DNA from: an uncultured Bradymonadales bacterium
GTDB taxonomy: Bacteria > Myxococcota_A > Bradymonadia > Bradymonadales > Bradymonadaceae
Reading direction: 5' to 3'
DNA: 24,253 nt
Assembly: GCA_964386725.1 (NCBI GenBank)
Contig: CAYLTX010000024.1
Location: 1 to 24,253 of the forward strand
The translations under genes were made by a program, and so were the position numbers. Below, in pieces: positions 1 through 22,955 of this stretch. Position 1 is the first letter of the stretch. Each line of letters starts with the position of its first letter. Below the pieces are notes generated by a model. That model was not told where the DNA came from and made no database searches. It was given only the letters and a program-made list of their open reading frames with translations.

Positions 1-1110
1 GCGGTCAGTTATATCTGGGAGTTTGTCCCCGCCCATTTCGAGCTTCAGGAGCACCACCAGGAGCGTGCAGTGTGCGCGTGCGGATGCTTTCTGTACGGCC
101 CGACGCCCGAGCGCGTCGCCGACGGGGTCATCTACGGGCCGGGGCTTCACGCCGACGTGGCCGTCTCGAAGTGCGACGACAGCCTGCCGATTGAACGCCA
201 GGCCAAGCGGATTCGCCGGGCCGGCATTCCGATGAGCCGAAGCAGCCTCAACGACGTATTTCACCGCACAGCCGAGCTGCTCACGCCCATCTGGCGGCGC
301 ATCCTCGAGCTCATCGCCCAAAGCGAGCACGTCTCGGCCGACGAGACGCCGATCAAGGTCCAGGACAAAGGCAAATGCCGCAAAGGCTGGATGTGGACCT
401 TCATCGCCCGCGGCTTGGTGGCCTACGTCTTCAGCGCATCGCGCAGCGGGCAGACGCCGGTGGACGTGCTCGGCGAGACCAGCGGCACCATCCAGGTCGA
501 CGGCTACTCGGGCTACAACACGATTAGCTGCCCCGAAGGCCGCACCCGATGTGGCTGCTGGGCACATGCGCGCCGCAAATTCTGGGACGCCTTGAAGTAT
601 GCGCCCAAAGAAGCGAGGTGGGTGCTCGACCAAATTTTGAAGCTCTACGAGGTCGAATACGAGGCCCACGAAAAGAAGATCATGGGCAGCGAGGCTCACA
701 AATTTTTACGCCAGGCCAAATCAAAGCCGCTCGTCGACGGGCTCTTCGAGTGGCTCGACGACCAAAAAGACATATGGCCGCCCAAAAGTCCGCTGGGTGA
801 GGCCATCAAATATGCGATCAATCAAAAAGAACCCCTGTCACATTTTTTGGACGAGCCGAAGGTCCGGCTGGACAACAATTTGAGCGAGCGACATCTCAGA
901 TTGGTGGCGCTGGGCCGCAAAAACTTTCTATTCGTCGGCCACGACACCGGCGGCAAGAACCTGGCGATCTTGCAGACGATCGTTGCGAGCTGTGTCGCCA
1001 ACAAGATCAACCCGCAAGAGTACCTGACCGACGTGATCATGCGGGTGCAGCATCATCCGCAGTCACGCATCGACGAGCTGCTTCCCGATCAGTGGAAGCC
1101 GCCCGGCTGA
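1..1110 (+). CDS. tnpC: IS66-family transposase (TnpC), 5'-partial. The reading frame is open from base 1, so the N-terminus lies outside the window.
   Basis: The translation has the typical IS66 TnpC layout. There is an N-terminal Cys cluster (CACGC), then PIERQAKRIRRAGIPMSRSSL, HVSADETPIKVQ and the DGYSGY block. The C-terminal region carries CWAHARRKF and LDNNLSERHLR motifs. The same frame has no stop codon between position 1 and the annotated Met at 70. Confidence 0.85.
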   Translation, partial: AVSYIWEFVPAHFELQEHHQERAVCACGCFLYGPTPERVADGVIYGPGLHADVAVSKCDDSLPIERQAKRIRRAGIPMSRSSLNDVFHRTAELLTPIWRRILELIAQSEHVSADETPIKVQDKGKCRKGWMWTFIARGLVAYVFSASRSGQTPVDVLGETSGTIQVDGYSGYNTISCPEGRTRCGCWAHARRKFWDALKYAPKEARWVLDQILKLYEVEYEAHEKKIMGSEAHKFLRQAKSKPLVDGLFEWLDDQKDIWPPKSPLGEAIKYAINQKEPLSHFLDEPKVRLDNNLSERHLRLVALGRKNFLFVGHDTGGKNLAILQTIVASCVANKINPQEYLTDVIMRVQHHPQSRIDELLPDQWKPPG

Positions 1111-1274: not shown

Positions 1275-1609
1275 CTGCCGGACGGATACGCGGGGCTGAA
1301 CCGCGTTTTGGGACTATCAGCGCAGGTACATTGAGGTGTTCCCCGCGTCCGCGGGGCTGAACCGTGCGCGACCATCTTCGCCCCGCTTGCCCACTCGTGT
1401 TCCCCGCGTCCGCGGGGCTGAACCGCGCGCTGGGCTCAACGCCATTTCGGTGCAGCCGTGTTCCCCGCGACCGCGGGGCTGAACCGGGACTGTCTCCGCG
1501 TGAGCGGGGCCACCCGGTATGTTCCCCGCGATAGCGGGGCTGAACCGTGGATCGGCGACAACAATTATTACCGGTTCGCGTGTTCCCCGCGTTTAGCGGG
1601 GCTGAACCG
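1275..1609 (+). CRISPR. Small CRISPR array with type I-E-like repeats. It has 5 clear repeats plus a degenerate leading half-repeat. Consensus is GTGTTCCCCGCGTCCGCGGGGCTGAACCG (29 bp) with 32-bp spacers.
   Basis: Repeats lie at 1336-1364, 1397-1425, 1458-1486 (T>A variant), 1519-1547 (ATGTT...ATAG variant) and 1580-1609 (30 bp, TTTAG insertion). A half-repeat at 1275-1303 matches only the 3' CGCGGGGCTGAACCG. All five spacers are exactly 32 bp (1304-1335, 1365-1396, 1426-1457, 1487-1518, 1548-1579). The repeat closely resembles the E. coli type I-E repeat GTGTTCCCCGCGCCAGCGGGGATAAACCG. Confidence 0.85.
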
Positions 1610-1636: not shown

Positions 1637-1662
1637 TGACGCCCAGAGGACGTCAGTCCAGT
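1637..1662. repeat. Left copy of a perfect 26-bp direct repeat, TGACGCCCAGAGGACGTCAGTCCAGT. It folds into a 6-bp-stem hairpin.
   Basis: An identical 26-mer occurs at 2317-2342. Each copy contains CTGACG..CGTCAG inverted arms. Confidence 0.9.
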
Positions 1663-2316
1663 AGTGGCGGCGAGCGTCGTGAGGCTACGGGTGAAGTTGG
1701 GGGTCGAGTCTCATCGTTACCCACATCACTGGAGCTCTAAATCGGGAGCCCTGAACGGTCACCGAAGGCTCCCCGATGAGCGGAACGAAGTGGAGCGCCG
1801 CGCCCCGTTGTTTAGGGGCGCCTTTGTAGCCCCATGTGACCGAATGGAACGTGGGGATCGGGCGTTGCGAACCGACCATATCATTGTATCCACCAACGAT
1901 ATGCTCGAATAGCGCGCTCGAGATTGCGCGTTGGGGCTTGATTGCCAGCCCCACCCTTACCCCAAGCTTCCTTCGCTAGCGCTACGGTCGCATGGGGCTA
2001 CAAAAGCCTCTCTCCGTTTCACTCCGCTCGGCGACGCTTCGCCTACGGCTACGCTCATCGAAAGGCTCCTTTCCCCGGGCGACGAGTTGATTTCCACAAC
2101 TCAGAGATGTGGGTAAGGATGAGGATCGAGTAGCACGTAAGGCCGACCGAGGTCGGAAAATCTGGGGGGCGAGTAGCTCGTCATTCCGACGTGAGGTCGG
2201 GTAAGTTGGGCGTCGAGAGGCGTGTAGTTGCGACGTGAGGTCGGTTCGAGCCCGTGCACGTTCAGGTTCACGGGTCTAATGGGACCGTAGCGGCCGTTCG
2301 AAGATGTCGATGATCG
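1663..2316. other. GC-depressed, ORF-poor, hairpin-dense non-coding island. It may be a structured ncRNA or a small non-autonomous element, but it is unclassified.
   Basis: There is no convincing ORF on either strand. Hairpins include CGGGAGCC..GGCTCCCC, GCGCCCC..GGGGCGC and CCCGTG..CACGGG (2250-2275). Three related stem-loops of the form CCGAC-(CGAG/GTGAG)-GTCGG lie at 2143-2156, 2186-2200 and 2231-2244. GC content is visibly lower than in the flanks. Confidence 0.3.
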
Positions 2317-2342
2317 TGACGCCCAGAGGACGTCAGTCCAGT
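2317..2342. repeat. Right copy of the perfect 26-bp direct repeat.
   Basis: It is identical to 1637-1662. It lies 73 bp downstream of the kinase gene stop at 2415 on the minus strand. Confidence 0.9.
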
Positions 2343-2414
2343 CGAGCCGGCGGGCATCACCACCAGACATGGGAAGGTCTGGCACCGGTGTTGGGCGATC
2401 GCCGCTCGGCCGGC

Positions 2415-5400
2415 TCAGCGTTGCAGGCGGCGGCGTTGGGCGTCGGCGAGGCGGGCGGCTTGGGCGGCGCGGGTGGGGTGGTCTTGGGCGGTGAGGGTTT
2501 GGTGGGCGGCTTGGGCGGCCCAGAGGATGTAGGGGAAGACGAAGTCGAGGTCGGCGTGGAGGCGGGCGGCTTGGGCGTGGGCGGTGTCCCAGGCGTCGAG
2601 GTCGCCGAGCTTGGCGAGCAGGGGGAGTCGGGCGCTGTGGTAGACGAGGTGGTAGACGTAGCGGCCGTCGAGGTCGACCACCGCGCGCATGGGCTCGAGC
2701 AGGGCCTGGGCGCGCTGGAGTCGGTCGTCGGCGACCGCTGTGATCGCTGCGCCGGCGCGGGCCAGGTCGGTCAGCCGGGAGTCGACCGCGCCGAAGAGGT
2801 CGAGGGCGTCGCGGTAGATCTGCCAGGCTTCGGCGGCGTCGCCGCGCTCGGCGGCGAGGTCGGCCATGAGCCGGCGGGCCATGCCCATGTAGACGGGCAT
2901 GCCCGTGGAGTGGGCGATTTGGTGGGCGTGTCGGGTCAGCGTGCCGGCGGCGGCGAAGTCGCCGCGGAACCAGGCGATCTCGGCGCGGCCCTGGTGGCAC
3001 CAGCTCAACTCCTCGCGCACGCCGTTGCTCGGGTCCGCCCCGCCCAGCTCGATGGCCTCGTCGAGCAGCGCTTCGCCGCGGTCGAGTTGGCCGGCCAGCA
3101 GGCGCAGCCAGCCCTGGCCGCCCAGCGCCTTGACCTGCCCCTCGATGTCGCCGACCTCCTCGAAGAGATAGCTGGCGTGGTCGTAAAAATGTGCGCCGCG
3201 CTCGACGTTGCCGTCGAGCCTGTCCAGCTCGCCGAGGACGTAGGAGATCGTGGCCAGCCCGGCCGGGTCGTCGAAGTGGGCGACCTCCTCGAAGAATCGG
3301 TTCGCCCAGCGACGCGCGCGCTCGGGTTGGCCGATGATGCGGCTGATGTCGGCCTGCAGGGGCATGTCGGCGGCGCGCCGGGGATCGGTCTCGGGCAGAT
3401 CGAGTTTGTCGACGACCTGCCGGTATTGGTCCAGCGTGGCCCGCGCGGCGGCGAACGACGAGGCGCGCAGGTGCTCGCGGCCGCTGTCGAGCAGGGGCGA
3501 TAGCGCCCGGTGATATTCTTCGGCCAAGAGCAGGTGCTGGGCGCGGCGGCGCGAGCGGGCGATGTTGTCGGGCTGCTCGGCCAACATCCGGGCGCAGGCG
3601 GCGTGGAAATGCTTCCAGAGGCCGGCGTCGCGGGCGCGCTGCTCGAGCGTCTCTCGCAGCGACTCGGTCTTGAAGCGCCATCCGGTCGGGGTGGAGACGG
3701 CCAGGCCGTGGCGGCCGAGCTCGTCCCACAGCAGCTCGGGCGGCTCGAGGCCGAGCAGCTCGACGACGCGCTCCCACTCGGCGCGAACGGCGGTCGTGCC
3801 CAGCGCCGCGGCCAGCTCGAGCGCGGTGAGCGCGTCGTCGGCGGCGGCCGGGGCCAGCGCGTCGAGGTGTCGGTCCAGGCGTCTCATCCACAGCGATTGG
3901 ATGTCGTCGGGGAAGGCATGCGGACCCTCTTTGCGCAGGCGATAGCCGTCGTCGCACTTGTCCAGCAGGTCGCATTCGAGCCAGTAGCGCACCAGATTGG
4001 CCGCGAATAGCGGCACGCCCTCGGTGTGCTCGACGAGCCGGTCGGCGAGCTCGGGGCTGAGCTCGAGCATCTGCGTGACGAGCTCGCGCTGCTCGGCGTC
4101 GGAGAGTCGCGCCAGCTTCAGCCGGCGCAGATTGCTCAATGTGAGCAACTCGCGGATATGCGGGTCGGAGGTCGCCGCCAGTTGACCGCGCGCGGTGGTG
4201 ATCAACACCAGACAGCCCAGCGGATCGCTGGAGTCTTCGCGCAGCAGGTATCGGGCCAATTGGAGCGATTCGCTGTGCGAGTCGACCGTGTCGAGCCACA
4301 AGATGAGCGGGCGCTCGGCGGCCTCGAGCGAGAGAAAGCGGGTCAGCACCGCCAGCCGTTGGGTCGGGTCGGAGAAGCGGAACTGAGCTCCATCTCGACC
4401 TTTCGCCGGGGACGGCCGCGGAGACGGTCGCATAAACTCGGTCAGCGCGGGGATGTCGACCTCCTCGATGACCCGCGCCACCTTGGCATCGTCCAGGTGC
4501 AGCCGGCTTCGGAAGTGCTTTTCGAGTCGCCGGTGGACTTTGGAGCGCGACAGGTCCCAGGTCCGCAAGTGATCGCCGAGCGCGCGTCGTAGCTCGTCGC
4601 CGCCGCGGCTGCTCTCCTGGTGAGAGATGCGAATGACCTTGGCGAGGCCGAGCTCCTGGGCGCGCTGGGTAAACCAGCCGAGCAGATGACTCTTGCCCAC
4701 GCCGGCTTCGCCGTTGATGAGCACGCCGCGGGTGCGCCGCTGGCGAAAGACGCGGCCGAGCTCGTCCCAAAGCATGTCGCGCTCGGCGTGCCGGCCGACC
4801 ATGGATAGGCGACGCAGCCCGAATAAGCCGACGCTCGCGGCGTGACGCTGCGAGTCCGCGGCCGCGCGCGCCCTCGCCTGCCAATCGTTGGGGAAGCCGG
4901 GGCGGTCGTAGTCGGGCAGATCGACGTGGTCGGTCAACGAGAGGACGCGCGGGATCAACTCGTCGGCCTCGTCTGCGTTGGAGCGTCCGCCGGCCGCGCC
5001 CGCGTCGACGATGCTCGAATCCTCCCACAGGCCGACGGGGCGGTCTTCGGGGGCGAGCATGGATTCCAGCGCGGTGCGGTTCTCCATGACCTCGTCGTGC
5101 TCGGCGACTCGGCGGTGCTCACCGGCGCGGTCGACGCGTGTGTCGGCCAGCGAGGGATCGACCTCCAGGACCTCGTCGATGCCGATATGGGATTTGGTCT
5201 CGGCGGTGGCCAGCGAGGCGGCGTCGTGGGCGTCGGCGGCGTCGCCGGTCGGTGGGGCGGGCTGGACCAGCGCGTTGTCGTCGAGCAACAGCAGGTTCCA
5301 GGCGGCGTCGGCCGCCGATTGAAACCGCCCGCGCAGATCTTTGGCCAGCAGCACCTCCAACCACTCATCGAAGCCGTCTGGGACGGCAAAGCGGGGCTCG

Positions 5401-6140
5401 AGCGGGGGCGGCGGCTCGTCGAGATGCCTCAACCACAGCCCGGTGGTATTGCGCGACTCGAAGGGCGGGTGCCCACAGGCGAACTCATAGGCCACGCACC
5501 CCAGCGCGTACAGATCCGTCCACGGGCCGAAGTCGCGCCAATGGCCGCGCACCTGCTCGGGGGCCATATAATAGGGCGTGCCGCTTCGGACCTGCTCGTC
5601 GCCGTCGCCGTCGCTGAGCGCCAGCGCTCGAGAGCGGGTGATCGCGTGGGCGAGGCCGAAGTCGCTCAGCAGCACCCGGTAGCCCTGTCGGGTCGGGTCG
5701 AGCAGGATATTGGCCGGCTTGATGTCTCGGTGGACCAGCCCGTGAGCGTGGCTGTGCGCCAGGGCGTCGAGCACCGAGACCAGGATCGCCCGCAGCGCCT
5801 TCCAATCCATCAATTGGGCGAGCCGCTCGAGGCTGCCTCCAGCGGCAAATTGCATCGCCAGCCAGGGGCTTGGGGCGGTAAAATCCCCTTGTGAGGCGCT
5901 CGCCTCGGCCTCGGAGACCCGCCCGTAGTCCAAGATCTGGACCACTCCCGGGTGGTCGAGCCGCGCCATCATGCGGACCTCCCGCTCGAAGGCGTGCTTG
6001 TGCGCCGAAGAGGTGGTCAAGGTCCGGCTGATCACCTTCACGGCCACCGGCTCGCCGGTGCGGTGGTGCTCACCGTACCAGACCTCGCCCATGCCCCCTC
6101 GACCCACACGGTTGTGGAGTTGGAAACGACCCAGTTTCAT
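2415..6140 (-). CDS. Large (1241 aa) multidomain Ser/Thr protein kinase. It has an N-terminal Hanks-type kinase, a central P-loop NTPase (NB-ARC/AAA-like) and a C-terminal TPR-like repeat region, i.e. STAND-like signalling kinase architecture.
   Basis: Kinase motifs are present: VGRGGMGEVWYG glycine loop, VAVK, HRDIKPANILL, DFGLA and GTPYYMAPE. Walker A GEAGVGKSHLL is at about aa 470. The C-terminal region is helical, leucine- and alanine-rich and repeat-like. The protein starts right at the kinase glycine loop. Confidence 0.85.
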   Translation of the reverse strand: MKLGRFQLHNRVGRGGMGEVWYGEHHRTGEPVAVKVISRTLTTSSAHKHAFEREVRMMARLDHPGVVQILDYGRVSEAEASASQGDFTAPSPWLAMQFAAGGSLERLAQLMDWKALRAILVSVLDALAHSHAHGLVHRDIKPANILLDPTRQGYRVLLSDFGLAHAITRSRALALSDGDGDEQVRSGTPYYMAPEQVRGHWRDFGPWTDLYALGCVAYEFACGHPPFESRNTTGLWLRHLDEPPPPLEPRFAVPDGFDEWLEVLLAKDLRGRFQSAADAAWNLLLLDDNALVQPAPPTGDAADAHDAASLATAETKSHIGIDEVLEVDPSLADTRVDRAGEHRRVAEHDEVMENRTALESMLAPEDRPVGLWEDSSIVDAGAAGGRSNADEADELIPRVLSLTDHVDLPDYDRPGFPNDWQARARAAADSQRHAASVGLFGLRRLSMVGRHAERDMLWDELGRVFRQRRTRGVLINGEAGVGKSHLLGWFTQRAQELGLAKVIRISHQESSRGGDELRRALGDHLRTWDLSRSKVHRRLEKHFRSRLHLDDAKVARVIEEVDIPALTEFMRPSPRPSPAKGRDGAQFRFSDPTQRLAVLTRFLSLEAAERPLILWLDTVDSHSESLQLARYLLREDSSDPLGCLVLITTARGQLAATSDPHIRELLTLSNLRRLKLARLSDAEQRELVTQMLELSPELADRLVEHTEGVPLFAANLVRYWLECDLLDKCDDGYRLRKEGPHAFPDDIQSLWMRRLDRHLDALAPAAADDALTALELAAALGTTAVRAEWERVVELLGLEPPELLWDELGRHGLAVSTPTGWRFKTESLRETLEQRARDAGLWKHFHAACARMLAEQPDNIARSRRRAQHLLLAEEYHRALSPLLDSGREHLRASSFAAARATLDQYRQVVDKLDLPETDPRRAADMPLQADISRIIGQPERARRWANRFFEEVAHFDDPAGLATISYVLGELDRLDGNVERGAHFYDHASYLFEEVGDIEGQVKALGGQGWLRLLAGQLDRGEALLDEAIELGGADPSNGVREELSWCHQGRAEIAWFRGDFAAAGTLTRHAHQIAHSTGMPVYMGMARRLMADLAAERGDAAEAWQIYRDALDLFGAVDSRLTDLARAGAAITAVADDRLQRAQALLEPMRAVVDLDGRYVYHLVYHSARLPLLAKLGDLDAWDTAHAQAARLHADLDFVFPYILWAAQAAHQTLTAQDHPTRAAQAARLADAQRRRLQR

Positions 6141-11506: not shown

Positions 11507-11595
11507 GATGGGTATGCCGGTTGTGAGGGTTGTGGATGATTGGAGATATTGTGCAGGCCGCGACGATAGCGCCTCGGAGGCGCTTCGTTCAAGCT

Positions 11596-11885
11596 TGCGC
11601 GGAGGTCGCTGAGGCGCGGAGGTCGCTGAGGCTCTGAATCGCGGAGGTCGCTGAATCGCGGAGGTCGCTGAAGGCTGGAGCGCTAATCGCGGAGTAGCTG
11701 AAGAAGACGCGAAGGCACGCGAAAAGAGCTGAAAAAGGCCGCCCGTTGCGGCTCGGTGGTCGGTTTGGGAGGTCTTCAGTGCCTTTCGAGGGACTCAGCG
11801 GTGTCTTCAGCTTTTTGCGATCAGTGTTCAGCCCCTCCGCGAGATCTGCGTCTCTGAGTTTCAGAACCTCCGAGTTCACCGAAGC
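11596..11885. repeat. Copy 1 of a ~270-bp dispersed repeat with an internal imperfect palindrome. It contains 4 tandem CGCGGAGGTCGCTGA units.
   Basis: It aligns at roughly 85% identity (my estimate) with 14284-14545. Shared blocks are CGCGGAGTAGCTGAAGA..GCGAAGGCACGCGAAAAGAGCTGAA..GGGAGGTCTTCAGTGCCTTTCG..TCAGCGG.GTCTTCAGC..GTTCAGCC..GCGAGATCTG.GTCTC.GAGT. The GCTGAAG and CTTCAGC halves form inverted arms. Confidence 0.8.
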
Positions 11886-14207: not shown

Positions 14208-14283
14208 CGTGGCGCCGGCTGTTGGGTGAAAGGCTCACTCTAACTTCAAATTAGCACCAACACTACACGCGGACAATGTTTGG

Positions 14284-14545
14284 AGGCGCGGAGGCCGCTG
14301 AAACGCTGAAACGCCGAGGTCGCTGAAGGCCGGAAGCGCTGACCGCGGAGTAGCTGAAGACACCGCGAAGGCACGCGAAAAGAGCTGAAGACGGCCGTAC
14401 ATTGCAGCTATGTGGTCGGGTCGGGAGGTCTTCAGTGCCTTTCGCGGGATTCAGCGGGGTCTTCAGCCTTTCGCGATTAGCGTTCAGCCACTCTGCGAGA
14501 TCTGAGTCTCCGAGTCTCTGAGTCTCCGAGTCTCCGAGCCTCCGC
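14284..14545. repeat. Copy 2 of the ~270-bp dispersed palindromic repeat. It ends in 5 tandem 8-mers (GAGTCTCC-like) abutting the stop codon of the 1789-aa gene.
   Basis: It is homologous to 11596-11885 in the same orientation. The microsatellite CTGAGTCTCCGAGTCTCTGAGTCTCCGAGTCTCCGAGCCTCCG lies at 14500-14543. Confidence 0.8.
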
Positions 14546-17500
14546 TACTCCCCCTCCGGCACCGCCGCCCCACGCAGCGCGTCGAGCTTTTTCATCACCT
14601 CGTCGAGCTGCGCATCGCGCTTCTGATCGTCGTCAGCTTCCCGATAGACGAATTTCGCCAACGGCAAAATCGCGCTCTCGATGAGCCCGAGCTGCGACTC
14701 GAGGACCTCGCCGAGCTTGGTGGGCATATCGCCGACGACTTGGACTTCGAGCTTGGCCTTTTGCAGGGATTGGAGCGCTTGGGCCAGCGCCTGAGCGGCG
14801 GCTGGTTCGGTTTGTTGGTTAGTCGGTTCTTGGGGTCCCCTCCGCCTCGCTTCGCTCCGCACCTCCCCCGCTCGGGGAGGGGATATCTGCCTCTCTGCGG
14901 CCTTCTCTGCTGAGTCGGCGGCGCGCTCCAGCGCACCGCGGATGTGGGTGAGCTCGCCGCTGAGGCTGTCGGTGGAGAGCGCCGTGTGGACGTCTTCGAG
15001 GCGTTGGACGAGTGTGGAAAGGGGGCCGGCGACGCGGCTGACGGGGTCGTCCTCGCCGCCGCCCATCATCTTGCGGCGCTTGAACTCGCGGCGGATTTCT
15101 TCCCAGCGGGCTTCTTTTTCGGGCGTCATCTTGCCGCGCAGCTCGGCCAGTTTGAGCAGGTTTTGCTCGCTGCCGGTGGTCAGCGTCTGGGCTTCCTGGT
15201 TGTAGTGGTTGTCGATGAGCTGCTCGACCTCGTCGTCGTTCATAGCCGAGGCGAGCTTCTCGGTCATCTTATTCATGTTGCGGTAGCTGCCCTGCAGCTG
15301 GAAGGGCGGTTCGGTGCGGTACTCGTCCTTCTTGCCCGCCGAGATGATGTACTGCTGGTTGACCTTCAGCACCACGTCGCGGATCTGCATGAGCTTTTCG
15401 AGCACGTTGACGATCTCGCCGGCCTCGACCGAGGAGTAGGCGTGGTCGAAGTCGCTCAGGGGGACTTGCTTGCCCTGGGCCATCTTCAAAAACCGGCCGA
15501 TATCGGCGCGCTCGCGGGTGACCAGCGGGGCGGTGACCTTGTTGGAGGTCAGCGCGTTCTCGATATAGCTGAGCTCGAAGACTTCGCGTTTGCCGTCGAG
15601 GATATCGCCCAAATTGTAAGTGTCGGCGCGGTTGGCGAGCATGTCCGGGATGGTGAAGCGCTCGCCGCTTTCGGTATACGGGTTGCCGGCCATGACCACC
15701 GCGAAGCGCTTGCCGCGCAGGTCGAAGGTCTTGGTCTCTCCGTTCCAGACGCCCTCGATGCGACGCGTGGAGTCGCATAGCGAGATGAATTTTTGCAAAA
15801 ACTCGGGGTGGGTGTGCTGGATATCGTCCAGATATAGCATCACGTTATTGCCCATCTCGAGGGCCTGGTTGATCTTTTCGACCTCCTGGCGGGCGGTGGC
15901 GTTGGGGGCCTCGGTGGCGTCGAGCGAGGTGACGTCGTGGCCCAAGGACGGCGCGTTGATCTTCATAAACATCAGGCCGAGCCGGTCGGCGACGTACTCC
16001 ATCAGGGTCGTCTTGCCGTAGCCGGGCGGCGAAATCAGCAGCAAAAGGCCGCTGCGATCCGAGCGGCTGTCCTCGCCGACGGTGCCCATCTGCTTGGCGA
16101 GGTTGTCGCCGATCAGCGGCAGGTAGGCCTCGTCGATGAGCCGGTTTCGCACAAAGCCGCTGAAGACCTGCGGCTCCATATCGTCGACGCGCAGCCGGCG
16201 GCGCTCGCGCTCGAGCAGCGCGCGGCTCAGCCGCTTATACTCTTTATAGGCGGGCACGTGCTCGTCGACGTAGCGGCGAAGCCGGGTCAAAAACTCGTCG
16301 AGGCGAAGCTCCATCGTGCCGTTGTCGATGCGCGGATGCTGGCCGAGCAGCTCTTTGACCTGGGTCGCGGTCTGCGCCGAGGTGGTCTGGCGGTCGATGT
16401 CCCCGTCGGTCAGGATCAGCGCGGCGACCTCGGGCACCAGGTGCGCGAGGTCGTCGTCGAGCTGGCTTTGCTCGAAGCCGGAGACCCAATCGACCATCAG
16501 ATCCCAGCTCGCGCTGAGGTCGCCCTCGAGCTTCTCGAGATCTTCGTCGAAGTCGAGGTGGGAGTGGTGGCGGTCGAGGTAGTCGTAGAAGGCTTTGCGC
16601 AGATCGGTGGCTTCGCCGCTGGCGATAAACCGGGGGTCCTGGTCGACGAGCTCTTCGGCGAGGTAGCGGCCGGCTTCGCGGGCGAGGCCCGTAAGCTGAT
16701 GCGCTGATGCGCTGAAGCGGGCAAGCTGCCCGCGCTCCATGAACTCTTCTATCTCCGTCGCTAATTCTTGGCCCAGCCGCTCGAGCGGCTCACCGTGGGC
16801 GAAGACCTCGCGCAGCCGGCCGAGGCTGACGCCGCGGCGCGCCCACCTCCGGCGCTGCTCGGGCTGGTCGGCGTAGGCCCAGAAGACCGTGGCCAGCGCG
16901 CGCGCCTCGGGGGTGTAGCGCAGCAGGCCGGCGGTGGCGTACATGCCCATGAGCTTCTTGAGGATCTTGATCGTATCGTCGTCGTGCACGCCGCGCTCAT
17001 AGCCCTCGTCGTAGCGCTCGTTCATGCGCTCGCGGATGAGCTTTCTGAGCGTGTCGGTGTCGCTGAGCAGGGCGTGCAGCTCGTCGACTGTAAGCTCGCT
17101 ATCGTTCTTCTCGGCCTCGAAGAGGATCGTCGCCGCCAGGTATTCGGCGCGGTAGACCTCGTCGGTCTCCGAGATGAGGTGCTGGTCCCAAAAGGGCCGC
17201 GTCTTGGCGAAGTCCTCGTCGTCGATCGGCTCGAGAAAGTCGGTGCCGGTGATATGCAGCGCCATACGTCTTTGGCCACCGTCTGGGCCGCCATCATCGT
17301 GGGGCACCATGGTCATCTCGGCCGGCTGCGTGTTCACGCTGAACCGGTGGCCGCCGAATTTGATGACGTTGTCGCCGCCCTCGAAGAGGTCGAGCTTGTC
17401 GCGCAGTTGGCGGACGGCCTTGTCCTTGGCGGCCTTGAGCTGGGTGTCGATGTCGTCGGCTTTGACGTCTTCTTCGAGCTCGCGCAGCCGCTCGACCAGG

Positions 17501-19914
17501 TCGCGCACCTTCATGACCATCGCGTCGGAGGCGAAGTAGCCGTTCAGATCCTCGACCGACTCCATATTGGAGGCGCGTCGGACCACGCCCTCGAGGATGC
17601 GCTCGGCGCTGCGGGCGATATTATTGGCCTGGCGCTGGCGCTCCTCGAGGAGCTGCTGCTTCCTGGTCTCGAAGACCTCGTAGACCTCGTCGCGCTTCTC
17701 GGCGAGCTTGCCCAAGAAGCCGTCGAAGTCGCTGAAGCGACTCTCGAGCTCCTCGAGCTGGACGGTCAGCCGGGTGAGCTGCTCGTCGCAGGCGTCCGGG
17801 GTGTTGGCCATGCCCAGGGCGCTGGTCACGCTCTGGCTAAAGAGCTGGAATTGGACGGCAAATTCGGCTTTGCCCTCTTTTTCCTGCAGCTCTTTTTTAT
17901 TGCGATCGAGCTTCGCCCGGGCGCGGTTTTGGCGGCTGAGCGCCTCCCCGATATTCTCCAGGATCCGGGTGCGCTTATTGGGGTCGTCGACCTTCAGGCC
18001 GCTGACGACTTCGGTGAGCAGGTTCAGCCCGAGGTTGATCTCGTCGAGCTTCTCCAACATCTCGTCGGCCTGGCGGGTGTCCTCGAGCTGGTCGACGGTC
18101 CCTTCGATCTCGGCGAGGCCGTCCTGGTAGGTCGACAGGGCGTCTTCGCGCAGCAAAAAATCGACGGTCGCCCGGCTGAGCTCGTCGTAGCGATCGCTGA
18201 CCTCTTCTTCGAGCTCTTCGAGGCGCGCGAGGTCGATATAGCGCATCTCCTCGAGGGTGATCAGCGCGCCGCGGTGCTTGCGCAGCTTGTCGAGGCCCTC
18301 GACGAAGCGGTCGATGCGCTTCCAATCGTGGTAGCGCACGTCAGTCATCAGGCCGCGCTGCTTTTGCACGGCCTCGGCGAGTGCGTCGCGGGCCTGCTCC
18401 TTGCGGGCGGTGACCTTCTGGAACTCGTCGATGACCAGCTCGGCGGTCTCGATGATCTCGGAGGTGACGCTGGCCAGGTTCTCGGCCTCGTCTTTGTCGA
18501 GCCAGAAATACGCGTCGAGCAGCCTTTGGGCGTTGGTGATCAGCGCCTCGTAGACCGGCAAAGACGGCTCGAGATCGCCGATCATCGAGCAGAGGCTATA
18601 GGCGTCGGAGACCCCGCGGACCAGCTCTTTATTGCCGATGCTCGACAGCAGCGAGTCGTCGGTGGGCTGGTTGGCGGCATGCTCGTCGCTGATAAACGGC
18701 GTCTGCCAGATCTGCATCGGGTGGATGCGGGTGGGCTCGTCGCCCATGAACCGAAATACGATCATCGTGCCGTCGTCGAAGAGGCTGTAGCCGTGGCAGT
18801 TGATCGGGTTCTGGACGCCCTTTTGGATGACGTTATAGGCGAGCAGCAGGTAGCTGCCGTCTTGCGGGTGGTAAAAGACGTATAAAACGTCCTCGCCGTT
18901 GGCCGATTTGATGACGCTGTGGGTGCGCAGGCCCTCGACGGCGCCGTCGAATTTGCGAAATTGGCCGTTCGACAGCGCAATGCCGCCCGGGAAGATCACG
19001 CCCTGGTCCTCGGGCAGCCGGATGCAGGATTGGCCGATGGCGTCGATGCGCTCGATCTGCTGGGTGAGCTTATTATAGATGAAGTAGCGCCAGCGCTCCT
19101 CGCGGTACGGCAGGATCTTGAGGAGGATCAGATTGCCGATCTCGGCGTAGCCGAATTCCCCGTCGCCCAGCGACTGGTGTTTGTCCTCGACCGGCTCGTT
19201 GTAGATGCCTTTGCCGTCGTCGGTATTGTCCTCGATCTTGATGGTCAGATCGCCGCCGACGGTCTCGACGAAGACCTCGTCGAGGATGCTGATATGCGGG
19301 TGGTGGCCGGTGACGTGGTCCTCACGGGTGACCGTGCGCCACTCGAAGTCGTGAGCCTCGGGCGGCTTGAGATCGCGGTCGCCAGCGTTGTCCAGATATT
19401 CGATATTCTCGGCCGCATCGAGCCCCCAGCGCAAAACGCGGGCATCGTCGAGGGTCGAGCCGACCTGGAAGAGTGCGAGCAGCCGGCCCTCCGGCTTGAG
19501 CAATTGCCGCAGCCGCGCGTCCTTATAGTAGGTATAGAGCTCGTCGAAATCCTCGAGGAAATCCTTGTCGGCCAGGAAGTTCTCGCCGCCGTCGAGCGGC
19601 ACCGTCTCGAGCTTGAAGCCGTCGTCGGAGGTCTCGAAGGCGTGCAAGCTGAAGACGTCGTCGACCTCGGTCTTGGTCTTCAGGCCGATCTTGACGTTAT
19701 AGCCAAAGAGCAGCCTGCCGCCGATGGTGACGATGTCCTGCGGGATGCAGTTATTCTCGGTGCGGATGCGCTCCTGGCCGACCACCGTCATCTCGACGCC
19801 GCCGAACATCGCCTCGCGCTTCTCATTGAGGCGATCGGTCTTGTCGGCGAGCCGCTGCGCCTGATCCTCCAGGCGCTTGCGGATGATGTCGTAATTGCTG
19901 GACTCGATGGACAT
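14545..19914 (-). CDS. Very large (1789 aa) protein. It has an N-terminal ~450-aa globular region, a long central coiled-coil/helical region and a C-terminal AAA+ ATPase (AAA_5 / MoxR / dynein-like P-loop). Function is unknown.
   Basis: Walker A is LLLISPPGYGKTTL, Walker B is NVMLYLDDIQH and sensor-1-like is AVVMAGNP, at about aa 1280-1400. The coiled-coil region has extensive E/K/R/L-rich heptad-like segments. The start ATG overlaps the flotillin stop (TAATG), indicating translational coupling. Confidence 0.85.
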   Translation of the reverse strand: MSIESSNYDIIRKRLEDQAQRLADKTDRLNEKREAMFGGVEMTVVGQERIRTENNCIPQDIVTIGGRLLFGYNVKIGLKTKTEVDDVFSLHAFETSDDGFKLETVPLDGGENFLADKDFLEDFDELYTYYKDARLRQLLKPEGRLLALFQVGSTLDDARVLRWGLDAAENIEYLDNAGDRDLKPPEAHDFEWRTVTREDHVTGHHPHISILDEVFVETVGGDLTIKIEDNTDDGKGIYNEPVEDKHQSLGDGEFGYAEIGNLILLKILPYREERWRYFIYNKLTQQIERIDAIGQSCIRLPEDQGVIFPGGIALSNGQFRKFDGAVEGLRTHSVIKSANGEDVLYVFYHPQDGSYLLLAYNVIQKGVQNPINCHGYSLFDDGTMIVFRFMGDEPTRIHPMQIWQTPFISDEHAANQPTDDSLLSSIGNKELVRGVSDAYSLCSMIGDLEPSLPVYEALITNAQRLLDAYFWLDKDEAENLASVTSEIIETAELVIDEFQKVTARKEQARDALAEAVQKQRGLMTDVRYHDWKRIDRFVEGLDKLRKHRGALITLEEMRYIDLARLEELEEEVSDRYDELSRATVDFLLREDALSTYQDGLAEIEGTVDQLEDTRQADEMLEKLDEINLGLNLLTEVVSGLKVDDPNKRTRILENIGEALSRQNRARAKLDRNKKELQEKEGKAEFAVQFQLFSQSVTSALGMANTPDACDEQLTRLTVQLEELESRFSDFDGFLGKLAEKRDEVYEVFETRKQQLLEERQRQANNIARSAERILEGVVRRASNMESVEDLNGYFASDAMVMKVRDLVERLRELEEDVKADDIDTQLKAAKDKAVRQLRDKLDLFEGGDNVIKFGGHRFSVNTQPAEMTMVPHDDGGPDGGQRRMALHITGTDFLEPIDDEDFAKTRPFWDQHLISETDEVYRAEYLAATILFEAEKNDSELTVDELHALLSDTDTLRKLIRERMNERYDEGYERGVHDDDTIKILKKLMGMYATAGLLRYTPEARALATVFWAYADQPEQRRRWARRGVSLGRLREVFAHGEPLERLGQELATEIEEFMERGQLARFSASAHQLTGLAREAGRYLAEELVDQDPRFIASGEATDLRKAFYDYLDRHHSHLDFDEDLEKLEGDLSASWDLMVDWVSGFEQSQLDDDLAHLVPEVAALILTDGDIDRQTTSAQTATQVKELLGQHPRIDNGTMELRLDEFLTRLRRYVDEHVPAYKEYKRLSRALLERERRRLRVDDMEPQVFSGFVRNRLIDEAYLPLIGDNLAKQMGTVGEDSRSDRSGLLLLISPPGYGKTTLMEYVADRLGLMFMKINAPSLGHDVTSLDATEAPNATARQEVEKINQALEMGNNVMLYLDDIQHTHPEFLQKFISLCDSTRRIEGVWNGETKTFDLRGKRFAVVMAGNPYTESGERFTIPDMLANRADTYNLGDILDGKREVFELSYIENALTSNKVTAPLVTRERADIGRFLKMAQGKQVPLSDFDHAYSSVEAGEIVNVLEKLMQIRDVVLKVNQQYIISAGKKDEYRTEPPFQLQGSYRNMNKMTEKLASAMNDDEVEQLIDNHYNQEAQTLTTGSEQNLLKLAELRGKMTPEKEARWEEIRREFKRRKMMGGGEDDPVSRVAGPLSTLVQRLEDVHTALSTDSLSGELTHIRGALERAADSAEKAAERQISPPRAGEVRSEARRRGPQEPTNQQTEPAAAQALAQALQSLQKAKLEVQVVGDMPTKLGEVLESQLGLIESAILPLAKFVYREADDDQKRDAQLDEVMKKLDALRGAAVPEGE

Positions 19915-22136
19915 TATTCACCGGGGGTCAGGTCGGGCGTGGACTCCTCGTCGGATTGGGCGTCGGACTTGTTGCCGGATTGGGCGTCCGCTCTGGCGAG
20001 TTGGCCGAGCCTGTCGGAGACCTCTTCGACGTCGATGTCCTCGGCGTCCTTATCGGAGTGCTTGTCCGAGCCGGGGAAATTGCCCATGCCGTCCATGACC
20101 TTGCCCAGCATCTTCTGGGCGGTGGGGCTGTGGTCCATGAAGCCCTCGACCATTTTGCCGACGGTGACCGACTTGGTGAAGTTCTCGAAGAACGAGTCCT
20201 GGCCGCCGACGATATTGATATTGGATGCCTTGAACGCGTCGCCGAGCACGTCGGCTTGGGCGCGGGCGATCTCGATGGACTTGGCGAGCTTCTCCATGCC
20301 CAGCTCTCGGTAAAGGTCGAGCTGCATCTGGAATTGCTCGAATTCGTAGCCTTCGGCGTCGAAGTTTTTCATCGCTTCGGCCTTCTCGGTCAGACCCTCG
20401 GCCTCGGCGGCGAGCTTGTCGCGGATGGCCTTGGCGTCGGCCTCGCCCATGTCGGCGCGGACCTTGGCGCGGGCCATGCCTTCCTCGCGGATGGCGTTGG
20501 CCTCGGCCTCTTTGATGCGCACGCTCACCATGCCCTGCTCTTCTTCGCCGGCGGCCTGCGCGGTCATCTTCTCGCGGGTGACCTTGGCTTCTGCCAGGCC
20601 CTCCTTCTCGATGGCCTCGGCCCGCTTTTCGGTCAGTCGGATGTCGACCATACCGGTCTCTTCGTTGCCGGCGGCTTCGGCGAGCATCTTCTCCTTGCGG
20701 ACCCTGGCGTCGACCATGCCCTGCTTTTCGTTGGCCTGCGCGTCGGCTTCTTTGACGCGGACCTTGGCCAGGCCGGGTGCGGCCTCTTCGGCCTCGATAC
20801 CCTCGGCCATGCGTTGCTTGGCCTTGGCGATGCGGTCGGCGGCGTCGAGCTCGGCGTCGGCTTCGACGACGCGCTGCTTGGCGCGGTGCTGGGCGGCTTG
20901 CTCTTCGGCCTCGGCGGCCTTGATATCCTTGACCAGTGCCTCTTCGGCCTCGCCCTCGGCGGCGATGACCGCGGCCTTCTTCTTACGCTCGGCGTCGGCG
21001 ATGACGCGCAGATCTTGGATGCGCTCTTCTTCCTCGGCCACCGTCTTGTCGACCGAGACGCGGTCGCGCACGATCTCGGCGATATTCTTCTTTTCGACCT
21101 CGACTTCTTTGTCTTTCTCGATGCGCTGCAGCTCGGTCTCGCGCTCTCGGCTGATGACCTGGAGCTGGCGCTCTTTTTCGACGTTTTCGGTCTCCACGGC
21201 GATGACGCGCTCGCGGTTTTTCTCGGCGACCTGTTCTTCGCGGGTCTTGTTGACCTTCTCGACCTCGATCTCCTGCTGAGCCTTGAGCTTGGCGCGCTCG
21301 GCTCGGGAGTACTCCTTGGCGGAGAGCTCGTCGGCCTCGGCCTGCTCGCGGGCCTGGACGACGTCGATCTCGCGCTTTTGCTTGGCCTCGGCTTCGGCCT
21401 GCTGGCGCTCGTATTCGAGCAGCGCCATCTTGGTCTCGAGGTCATCTTTGCCGATGTCCTTCTTGGCCTTGTTGGCAAATTCGTTGGTGCGGAAGCGCTG
21501 ATCACTGGTCAGGTCAGTGATCTTGCGGATGCCCTGCGAGTCCAGAATATTCTGCGGATCGAGGTCCTCGACCGGGGTCTGCTCGAGGAAGTCAATGGCG
21601 GCGTCCTCGAGGACGTAGCCGTTGAGGTCTTCGCCGATGATCTCGATGATATCGTCGCGGAAGCGCACGCGCTCGTTGTACAGCGACTCGAATTCGAGGC
21701 TCTTACCGACGGTCTTGAGCGCCTCGGAGAATTTGGCGGCGAAGAGCTCCTCGATCTTGTCGTGGTCCGAGGCGCGCTTGCAGCCGACCGATTGGGCGAC
21801 CTTGAGCACGTCCTTGGCAGTCTGGTTGACCCGTACGAAGAAGGTGACCTTGATGTCGGCGCGGATATTGTCCGCGCAGATCAGCCCCTCTTTGCCGCGC
21901 CGGTCGATCTCGATGGTCTTCAGCGAGACGTCCATGAACTCGGCGCGGTGGATCACCGGCAGGACCAGCCCACCTTTGAAGGTCACCTCCGGATCGGTGT
22001 TGCCGGTCTTGTTGATGATCAGCGCCTGGCCCTGATCGACCTTGATGTAGCGGTTGATGAAAAAGGCGACCACGCCGAAGAGGATGACTCCGCCTCCGAT
22101 GATTCCGAATAATAAAGCAGCGCTGATTCCTGACAT
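19914..22136 (-). CDS. Flotillin-family SPFH/band-7 protein (YqiK/FloT-like) with an extended EA-rich coiled-coil and three ~40-aa tandem repeats.
   Basis: It has an N-terminal TM helix (ISAALLFGIIGGGVILFGVVAFFI). The SPFH core reads KVDQGQALIINKTG...VSLKTIEID. Long EAEAKQKRE / AEAEEQAA coiled-coil flotillin-type repeats follow. The repeated unit is AAGxEExGMVxxRxxExxAxAIxxEGxAxAKV (about nt 20440-20760). The RBS AGGAGA lies 7 nt upstream. Confidence 0.9.
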   Translation of the reverse strand: MSGISAALLFGIIGGGVILFGVVAFFINRYIKVDQGQALIINKTGNTDPEVTFKGGLVLPVIHRAEFMDVSLKTIEIDRRGKEGLICADNIRADIKVTFFVRVNQTAKDVLKVAQSVGCKRASDHDKIEELFAAKFSEALKTVGKSLEFESLYNERVRFRDDIIEIIGEDLNGYVLEDAAIDFLEQTPVEDLDPQNILDSQGIRKITDLTSDQRFRTNEFANKAKKDIGKDDLETKMALLEYERQQAEAEAKQKREIDVVQAREQAEADELSAKEYSRAERAKLKAQQEIEVEKVNKTREEQVAEKNRERVIAVETENVEKERQLQVISRERETELQRIEKDKEVEVEKKNIAEIVRDRVSVDKTVAEEEERIQDLRVIADAERKKKAAVIAAEGEAEEALVKDIKAAEAEEQAAQHRAKQRVVEADAELDAADRIAKAKQRMAEGIEAEEAAPGLAKVRVKEADAQANEKQGMVDARVRKEKMLAEAAGNEETGMVDIRLTEKRAEAIEKEGLAEAKVTREKMTAQAAGEEEQGMVSVRIKEAEANAIREEGMARAKVRADMGEADAKAIRDKLAAEAEGLTEKAEAMKNFDAEGYEFEQFQMQLDLYRELGMEKLAKSIEIARAQADVLGDAFKASNINIVGGQDSFFENFTKSVTVGKMVEGFMDHSPTAQKMLGKVMDGMGNFPGSDKHSDKDAEDIDVEEVSDRLGQLARADAQSGNKSDAQSDEESTPDLTPGE

Positions 22137-22172
22137 CAGCTTTCTCCTGTCTGGTGGTGATATTGCGCGTAA

Positions 22173-22955
22173 TTATGCAGTGGGTTCTTCAGCTTTTTCT
22201 TGGATCTCGGAGGCGGCCGGCTGGTCTTCGAAGGCCACCTCGTCGGCATAGTCGTCATCATCGTCGGCCAATAGATCGTCGTAGGGCTCGACGAAGAAGA
22301 CTTCATCCTCGGCGTCGTATTCGATGAGCAGCGCGCGTGAGCCGCGCGTCAGCGCGCCTTCAGTCTCACAGCGGATCGACACCAGCAGTCCGGCGCCGCC
22401 GTCGTCGACCTCGCCGCGGCCGAAGCTCTCGGTGACCCGCCCGGAGGTGACTTTGCACAGCTTGCCGACCAGCGAATGCCCGCCCGTTTTGGTGTGAATT
22501 TCGAAGAGGCCCTTGAGCGGATGGGTGAAGATCGAGGTGATCGGAAGCCCCACGATGACGCTTCCGACGACCACGCCCAGCCCCACGAAGACACCGGTGC
22601 CGAAGATCGGCCCCAGGTAATAGACCGCGGCAAAACACAAAAACCAGGAGACCAGCGTCAGAATGCTGGCGATGATGGTCACCGGCACCCGGCCCAGGCC
22701 GATGGCGGCCATCATCGCGTGCAAAAAGCCGCCATGGGAGCCCGCGTCGACATCGGCATCGGCGTCGATATCAGCGTCCACATCGGCGTCGAAGTCGATG
22801 TCGACATCCACCTCGTCGAACTCGAAGTCGAAGTCGAATAGCTCGATGTCGACCGCGCCGACGATGGCCATCAGCCAATACATCACGACTAAGATCAACA
22901 TCCCCGAGAAGATGACGGTCGGGAAGGAGAGGGCGATGTCGAGAAATTCAGTCAT
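22173..22955 (-). CDS. NfeD/YqiJ-like membrane protein. It has N-terminal TM helices and a C-terminal OB-fold, and is the typical partner of SPFH proteins. Here it carries an unusual acidic D/F/V repeat loop.
   Basis: TM segments are present (FPTVIFSGMLILVVMYWLMAIVGAV; IIASILTLVSWFLCFAAVYYLGPIFG; VFVGLGVVVGSVIVGLPI). The C-terminal beta-rich segment GKLCKVTSGRVTESFGRGEVDDGGAGLLVSIRCETEGALTRGSRALLIEY resembles an NfeD OB-fold. It lies immediately upstream of the flotillin gene in the same orientation. The acidic loop is DIELFDFDFEFDEVDVDIDFDADVDADIDADADVDA. Confidence 0.7.
   Translation of the reverse strand: MTEFLDIALSFPTVIFSGMLILVVMYWLMAIVGAVDIELFDFDFEFDEVDVDIDFDADVDADIDADADVDAGSHGGFLHAMMAAIGLGRVPVTIIASILTLVSWFLCFAAVYYLGPIFGTGVFVGLGVVVGSVIVGLPITSIFTHPLKGLFEIHTKTGGHSLVGKLCKVTSGRVTESFGRGEVDDGGAGLLVSIRCETEGALTRGSRALLIEYDAEDEVFFVEPYDDLLADDDDDYADEVAFEDQPAASEIQEKAEEPTA

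Follow-up and report, generated by a model that had tools for sequence, protein, structure and literature searches.

Cis-mobilizable elements (CIMEs), in which the integration genes have been lost and the attachment sites attL and attR kept, are a recognised class (PMC5704250). In insertion sequences (IS) of the IS200/IS605 family, the hallmark is a pair of near-identical subterminal hairpins that point in the same direction, terminal inverted repeats and target duplication being absent (PMC3201880). Likenesses to both were found in a short non-coding island (positions 1637 to 2342) of a 24,253-nt stretch of DNA from an uncultured Bradymonadales bacterium (GenBank assembly GCA_964386725.1, contig CAYLTX010000024.1), this whole stretch being referred to as the window. 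The island lies between a clustered regularly interspaced short palindromic repeats (CRISPR) array and a kinase gene, and it is bounded by two identical 26-nt sequences (the 26-mer; TGACGCCCAGAGGACGTCAGTCCAGT). It possibly represents a small, gene-free insertion at the DNA level, either a helper-dependent element or a decayed remnant, with the 26-mers as attachment site (att)-like core repeats and site-specific recombination as the mode of insertion, a reading that is put forward tentatively. The broader proposition, a single insertion event of mobile DNA of some sort with the two 26-mers as its ends, is considered evenly balanced.

Two identical direct repeats bound the island

Exactly two copies of the 26-mer were found in the window, both on the + strand and 680 nt apart from start to start (Table 1), and dinucleotide shuffles gave an expected number of 0 chance matches. 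This bears out the first-pass annotation of the stretch, made from the letters alone, which had pointed to perfect 26-bp repeats at this distance and had considered them unexpected by chance. No further copy was present in the window with ≤3 mismatches, nor with ≤6 substitutions. The repeat-bounded stretch measures 706 bp, of which 654 bp lie between the copies, and copy 1 starts 27 nt beyond the last CRISPR repeat. Folded as single-stranded DNA, each 26-mer forms a hairpin, as had also been proposed, with an energy of -5.1 kcal/mol on the + strand and of -5.5 kcal/mol on the - strand (8-bp stem). In addition, the stem of copy 1 is lengthened by its flanks CTACTG (1630-1635) and CAGTAG (1659-1664), which contribute six extra pairs and bring the energy to -10.6 kcal/mol; the same kind of folding revealed no stem extension from the flanks of copy 2.

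The 26-mer is of low copy number and also occurs without the island. A genome-wide scan for exact matches, covering one genome per species for 185,579 species, retrieved one further copy only. This single copy was located in the sister Persicimonas metagenome-assembled genome (MAG) C5M10_1, on a 4-kb contig (L001), between convergent genes and 33 nt past the stop codon of an M23 peptidase gene, at an unrelated locus that displayed no trace of the island. Its orientation to the upstream gene is that of copy 2 to the kinase gene, and the 3' regions of these two copies showed marginal extra similarity (p = 0.013, one pairwise comparison). A three-way alignment around the 26-mers revealed nothing conserved outside the 26-mer itself. 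Diverged copies (≤6 substitutions) were found neither in L001, nor in a second comparison locus (L002), nor in the rest of the window, and a pattern of hairpin plus tail with a free loop occurred only in L001 among the loci L001 to L004. The stop codon of the M23 peptidase gene is the exact start of a ~29-nt tandem duplication (L001, 2329-2364), which lies directly before the solitary 26-mer.

The island, in turn, is an orphan. Searches with blastn retrieved no homologue in plasmids or phages, and neither the 26-mer core nor internal segments of the island had a match in the JGI metagenomes or the IMG/VR viral contigs. A metagenome scan with a double-hairpin pattern gave only an unrelated high-GC contig (L005) with a local duplication of its own. 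The window was 100% identical to Logan contigs of run SRR15425352, one of which (L012) ends inside the island at position 2037. Because the copy number of the 26-mer is low, two copies in the same orientation 680 bp apart are unlikely to be independent of each other.

Architecture of the island interior

Two nested inverted repeats, A and B, were found inside the island, with scores of 16 and 17 versus a best score of 10.7 ± 1.6 (maximum 16) in shuffled sequences (n = 200 shuffles); they are the source of part of the structural signal described below. A single long palindrome was not seen, the left and right halves of the island being complementary in discrete blocks only. Furthermore, the island contains five copies of a 19-nt motif (GGTRAGnTGGGnGTCGAG), with ~1 match expected in the whole window, although the pattern was built from the same five copies, which makes this count partly circular. 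Three direct copies, at 2112, 2155 and 2199, stand in a 43-44-nt phase, and inverted repeat A consists of the motif copies at 1703 (-) and 2112 (+) plus ~10 more pairs. The three tandem units that open with this motif are 66-70% alike. The hairpins that close them, initially described as three related stem-loops ~45 nt apart, were recovered with spacings of 43 and 44 nt, the third one beginning with GCGAC. A further hairpin had been recorded with a 9-bp stem; the hairpin is present, but its stem is interrupted by a mismatch (Table 1). The two longest helices of the island measure 20-24 bp and are near-perfect. Almost all pairs in the island helices are Watson-Crick pairs, and the few G-U pairs are divided between the strands, so that both strands fold about equally.

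Table 1. Features of the island and of its immediate surroundings, in window coordinates.
Feature	Position	Strand	Description
IS66 transposase gene	70-1110		Ends ~225 nt upstream of the first full CRISPR repeat
CRISPR array, type I-E-like	1336-1609	+	Five repeats, decaying from left to right; island at the trailer end
26-mer, copy 1	1637-1662	+	Hairpin TGACG-N9-CGTCA (1637-1655) plus conserved tail GTCCAGT
Weak direct-repeat extension past the 26-mer	1663-1678 versus 2343-2358	+	11/16 bases match
Two overlapping 19-nt motif copies, opposite orientation	1690-1708; 1703-1721	+; -	28-59 nt inside copy 1
Inverted repeat A, left arm	1704-1731		Pairs with 2102-2129; 24/28 positions complementary
Inverted repeat B, left arm	1820-1842		Pairs with 1985-2007; 21/23 positions complementary; 142 nt between the arms
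Inverted repeat B, right arm	1985-2007		Partner of 1820-1842
Inverted repeat A, right arm	2102-2129		Overlaps the 19-nt motif copy at 2112-2130
Three tandem 43-44-nt units	2106-2244	+	Each opens with the 19-nt motif and closes with a CCGAC/GTCGG hairpin
Hairpin CCGAC-CGAG-GTCGG	2143-2156	+	Ends tandem unit 1
Hairpin CCGAC-GTGAG-GTCGG	2186-2200	+	Ends tandem unit 2
Hairpin GCGAC-GTGAG-GTCGG	2230-2244	+	Ends tandem unit 3
Hairpin GCCCGTG...CACGGGT	2250-2275	+	7 pairs, mismatch, 2 more pairs
26-mer, copy 2	2317-2342	+	Identical to copy 1; 72 nt past the stop codon of the - strand kinase gene
Ser/Thr kinase-AAA_16-TPR gene	2415-6140	-	Intact

Coding capacity, RNA signals, GC content and folding

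The island had been described as lacking a credible open reading frame (ORF), and no protein signal was obtained from it. Pfam and NCBIfam models matched neither its ORFs nor any of the six frames, and its concatenated ORF translations had no match at E≤10 among 5.8 billion proteins. A degenerated protein-coding gene, envisaged at the outset as a simpler identity, thus left no trace in the frames or in the protein search. The same holds for a known RNA family: a scan of 1100-2700 on both strands gave no Rfam 15 hit inside the island at E≤10, and no model reached its gathering score across the whole window. No tRNA or tmRNA was detected in the island by ARAGORN, and neither a sigma-70-type promoter nor an intrinsic terminator was predicted for it.

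The GC content of the island (0.60, with 0.55-0.64 throughout) is lower than that of the kinase gene (0.70), as had been remarked, but falls within the range of the other intergenic stretches of the window (0.48-0.64; window as a whole, 0.64). Since it equals that of other intergenic DNA, it signals only that the island is non-coding. The low GC content and the IS and CRISPR neighbourhood, initially invoked in support of a mobile origin, therefore add little. The folding of the island is likewise less distinctive than it had seemed. The folding energy differed from that of shuffled sequences by -35 kcal/mol on the + strand and -48 kcal/mol on the - strand (z = -3.8 and -5.5), while eight control segments of the same length from the window gave z values of -1.3 to -4.1; the folding tool's own z values for 1630-2350 were -5.5 and -10.4. 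Hence, no other tested segment was as structured as the island, yet coding controls are close behind. The strand symmetry of the helices and the lack of a predicted promoter or terminator favour a DNA-level element over a strand-specific RNA.

A tentative model of insertion

If the island is an att-bounded insertion, a circular form with one 26-bp site would have recombined with an identical 26-bp site in the chromosome, an event that would have generated attL and attR, with one 26-mer in each. The shape of the 26-mer, with inverted 5-bp arms (TGACG/CGTCA), a 9-bp spacer and a 7-nt tail, may be that of a recombinase core. The five 19-nt motif copies may have served as accessory (arm-type) protein-binding sites. 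Two of them lie close to the left junction, on its inner side, and the other three stand in phase at 118-205 nt from the right junction; brought together by a single core, they would cover ~290 bp, a length typical of attP. What is left of the interior, ~390 bp that include inverted repeat B and several hairpins, would be a non-functional remnant, and a recombinase would presumably have acted in trans. An empty site would read CTACTGC, the 26-mer and CGAGCCGG in this order, and the circle junction GATGATCG, the 26-mer and AGTGGCGG. The solitary 26-mer, alone at a non-syntenic intergenic site of a sister MAG that is 89-94% identical in nucleotides over the locus it shares with the window, has the appearance expected of an unoccupied target. 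As the kinase gene is intact and has the length of its Persicimonas caeni homologue, the insertion would be intergenic. A non-autonomous element with att-like ends, as suggested in the first-pass annotation, is still the best fit, albeit unproven, while the TIR-like (terminal inverted repeat-like) ends suggested alongside are contradicted by the end repeats, which are direct and not inverted.

Several observations weigh against such an insertion. The solitary 26-mer sits at a different locus, which means that the target itself must be dispersed. With its 654 bp, the island is far below the described att-flanked remnants in size. No sequence relationship to a complete integrative and conjugative element (ICE), integrative and mobilizable element (IME) or prophage emerged from searches of phages, plasmids, viral contigs, metagenomes and species-representative genomes, and these same collections contained no second copy of the island, i.e. 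no direct evidence of mobility. The window contains no recombinase or integrase gene, its sole mobility gene being that of the IS66 transposase. Tandem 40-50-nt hairpin units are common in the intergenic DNA of the clade, so that the 44-nt units of the island need no function. Finally, the kinase-phytochrome locus is syntenic in two sister Persicimonas MAGs (GCA_046545675.1 and GCA_048621215.1), with nucleotide identities of 89-94% on one contig (L003) and 94% on the other (L013), but both contigs end inside the kinase gene, at the window-equivalent positions 2609 (L003) and 2692 (L013), which leaves the orthologous junction unread.

Alternative explanations

The intergenic DNA of the Persicimonas clade is generally rich in structured repeats, and part of it accompanies Y1 transposase genes. 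In P. caeni (CP042468; L004, 20424-21790), a gene for a 173-aa Y1 transposase of the IS200/IS605 or REP-associated tyrosine transposase (RAYT) type, REP standing for repetitive extragenic palindrome, is located between direct structured repeats of 195 nt (95% identity), beside which tandem units of 32 nt and hairpin-forming ones of 43-50 nt occur. Relatives (including L006 and L008) carry the same Y1 gene with direct 140-nt and inverted 64-66-nt repeats, or with tandem structured flanks. A literature search on Persicimonas retrieved nothing on repeats. Given this architecture of direct structured repeats and tandem hairpin units in the clade, the island could be a non-autonomous IS200/IS605-type element, with the 26-mers as left and right subterminal hairpins and with a Y1 HUH transposase encoded elsewhere moving its top strand as a single-stranded circle ('peel and paste'). 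The identical end hairpins on the same strand, the lack of terminal inverted repeats in the island, the size of 706 bp and the hairpin-rich, gene-free interior all fit this explanation, which is a close rival of the att-like insertion and nearly as likely. Against it, no Y1 transposase or TnpB gene was found in the window, and the repeats flanking the Y1 and RAYT genes of the clade have no sequence similarity to the 26-mer or the island, the consensus of the RAYT repeats being absent from the window as well. In this family, a guide tetranucleotide 5' of each hairpin foot pairs with the cleavage or target tetranucleotide, which is situated 5' of the left end and ~10 nt 3' of the right hairpin. 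Candidate guide tetranucleotides (CTGC and ATCG on the + strand, GGAC at both ends on the - strand) had no consistent complementary cleavage sites at IS608-like distances when inspected by eye, distances that vary in the family. Moreover, the solitary 26-mer of the sister MAG is not expected of an IS, and the island is single-copy in everything searched. That solitary copy, placed after an unrelated gene and oriented as copy 2, agrees with the explanation that the island is not a unit, the 26-mer being a REP-like hairpin dispersed after genes and the DNA between its two copies being ordinary decaying intergenic DNA, made up of minisatellites, palindromes and debris of the CRISPR locus. The marginal similarity of the 3' regions points the same way, as do the intergenic GC content of the island and a folding excess close to the highest among the controls. 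Both the window and P. caeni have further tandem hairpin repeats in intergenic DNA (for instance three tandem ~42-nt hairpin units at L004 9682-9866, upstream of the kinase homologue), and the window also has a 228-nt palindromic element in two copies. The first-pass annotation had itself named a common REP-type repeat, unrelated to the island, as a competing identity; the 26-mer does occur without the island, but in a single exact copy in the sister MAG and in none of the other species representatives, JGI metagenomes or viral contigs, nor did ~80 kb of Persicimonas-clade DNA hold diverged copies (≤6 substitutions). At such a low copy number, two identical copies in the same orientation 680 bp apart would arise by chance in ~1-5% of cases, according to a rough estimate. 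Together with nested inverted repeats and motif copies in excess of shuffles, this weighs against the absence of any unit, an explanation that is a close rival of the att-like insertion all the same.

A large structured non-coding RNA (ncRNA) of ~650-700 nt, with the 26-nt hairpins as 5' and 3' boundaries or processing sites, was the other identity suggested at first. The folding energy of the island, clearly below that of shuffles on both strands, its long-range, nested helices and its lack of coding potential are in keeping with an ncRNA. Such an RNA is improbable, as the near-purely Watson-Crick helices, with G-U pairs on both strands, indicate no preferred strand, and one of the two longest helices is made of inverted copies of the 19-nt motif plus ~10 pairs. 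In addition, no Rfam family matched even at E≤10, neither a sigma-70-type promoter nor an intrinsic terminator was predicted, and no homologue was found that could display conservation or covariation. The three direct motif copies 43-44 nt apart, together with an inverted pair, are reminiscent of iteron and operator layouts, and the island adjoins an IS and a decaying CRISPR array; it might be the residue, after integration and decay, of a region for replication or partition that came from a plasmid or phage. This is very improbable, since no trace of a rep gene was found in any frame, there is no AT-rich tract (GC 0.55-0.64), no plasmid or phage record is similar, and the 26-bp direct repeats would be left unexplained. 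Equally improbable as the ncRNA is that the island is the first member of a gene-free class specific to the Bradymonadia and bounded by a 26-nt hairpin site, be it hairpin-directed mobile DNA, for which a dispersed hairpin in 3' untranslated regions would be both target and end, or a large structured RNA with boundaries set by hairpins.

Other identities were set aside. A miniature inverted-repeat transposable element (MITE) does not match, the outer repeats being direct and inverted repeats A and B having no flanking target duplication. In a type III toxin-antitoxin RNA array, tandem repeats of 34-45 nt precede a terminator and a toxin gene; the island has tandem repeats, but they are followed by no ORF with a family signal and by no predicted terminator. 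The island is no extension of the CRISPR array, because the next position in the 61-nt period matches the consensus repeat at 4/29 positions and the spacers do not match the island; a repeat duplication of the Cas1 type would involve an insert of ~32 bp and a duplication of 29 bp, not 654 bp and 26 bp. Integron attC sites were rejected because their cores, GTTRRRY and RYYYAAC, do not occur at both 26-mer copies, and a dif/Xer site as the 26-mer is unlike dif and is carried by two loci. The hairpin at 2248-2280 is not a group II intron domain V, given the misfit of its loop and bulge and the silence of Rfam.

Genomic neighbourhood

The IS66 transposase gene, the CRISPR array and the kinase gene flank the island as originally described (Table 1). 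The IS66 transposase makes 8-bp duplications. A CRISPR half-repeat was seen at about 1289-1303, no cas gene was found in the window, and the spacers matched neither the island nor the comparison loci examined. In the two independent sister MAGs, in which the kinase gene is syntenic and 94% identical in nucleotides, the contigs (L003 and L013) break towards the 3' end of this gene, where internal repeats of 24 nt and 111 nt occur.

The two copies of the 228-nt repeat (11649-11875 and 14304-14531) are 85% identical. Each is palindromic, containing an inverted repeat of ~40 nt, and follows tandem repeats of 17 nt or 8 nt; tandem repeats next to these copies occupy 11569-11702, 14283-14334 and 14496-14551. 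The copies enclose a 2.4-kb segment that includes a HepT-like gene, and in a sister MAG (L003) the stretch beside the SDR gene differs in content, including a 184-aa gene. A 1789-aa DUF3686/AAA protein is encoded at 14545-22955 on the - strand and gave a weak LmuB-like PADLOC match (E = 2.5e-10); it is followed by a 740-aa and a 260-aa protein without family assignment, and the three may form a defence or DNA-repair module.

Significance and comparison with known systems

If the 26-mers are recombination sites, the island would be a minimal example of a gene-free insertion mobilised in trans, and a short hairpin downstream of genes could be an insertion target in the predatory Bradymonadia, in which mobile elements are essentially undescribed. 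Otherwise, it would be an instance of lineage-specific, repeat-rich intergenic DNA, useful chiefly as a warning that, taken alone, strong folding scores and a lower GC content in high-GC genomes do not point to an RNA gene or foreign DNA. The candidate mechanisms are all of known kinds, while the sequence of the island is new and lineage-restricted. The observation holds but is of modest weight; lacking a second copy, an empty site and a transcript, it offers nothing that would surprise a specialist.

Among modular intergenic repeats, the pneumococcal BOX element (boxA, tandem 45-nt boxB, boxC) and the mycobacterial interspersed repetitive unit (MIRU) minisatellites are multi-copy and sequence-defined. 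The island resembles them in having tandem ~44-nt units within a structured, non-coding, modular intergenic element, and differs from them in that it has no match to these families. With palindrome-associated transposable elements (PATEs; PMC3201880, PMC3597680), it shares end hairpins on the same strand without terminal inverted repeats, a small structured non-coding interior and the presence of Y1 transposases in the clade, but it lacks an evident guide and cleavage complementarity, a nearby TnpA or TnpB, demonstrated multiple copies and similarity to the clade repeats. The 26-mer itself is akin to REPs and their composites, the bacterial interspersed mosaic elements (BIMEs) and REP doublets forming hairpins (REPINs) (PMC3333891, PMC8266576), being a short hairpin, headed on the - strand by seven conserved nucleotides (ACTGGAC), that lies downstream of genes at more than one locus. 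In contrast, REPs are high-copy, and the 26-mer has one exact copy in a sister genome; in REPINs and BIMEs the REPs are paired in inverted orientation at a short distance, and the 26-mers are direct and 654 bp apart; and the repeats beside the RAYT genes of the clade differ from the 26-mer in sequence. CIMEs, finally, measure kilobases, and the repeat of the island differs from theirs in not coinciding with the 3' terminus of a tRNA gene or protein gene and in having its solitary copy at another locus; moreover, no related ICE, IME, prophage or integrase was found. The island nonetheless corresponds to a CIME in being gene-free DNA between identical direct repeats, beside the 3' end of a chromosomal gene, with a single copy of the repeat elsewhere that carries no insert.

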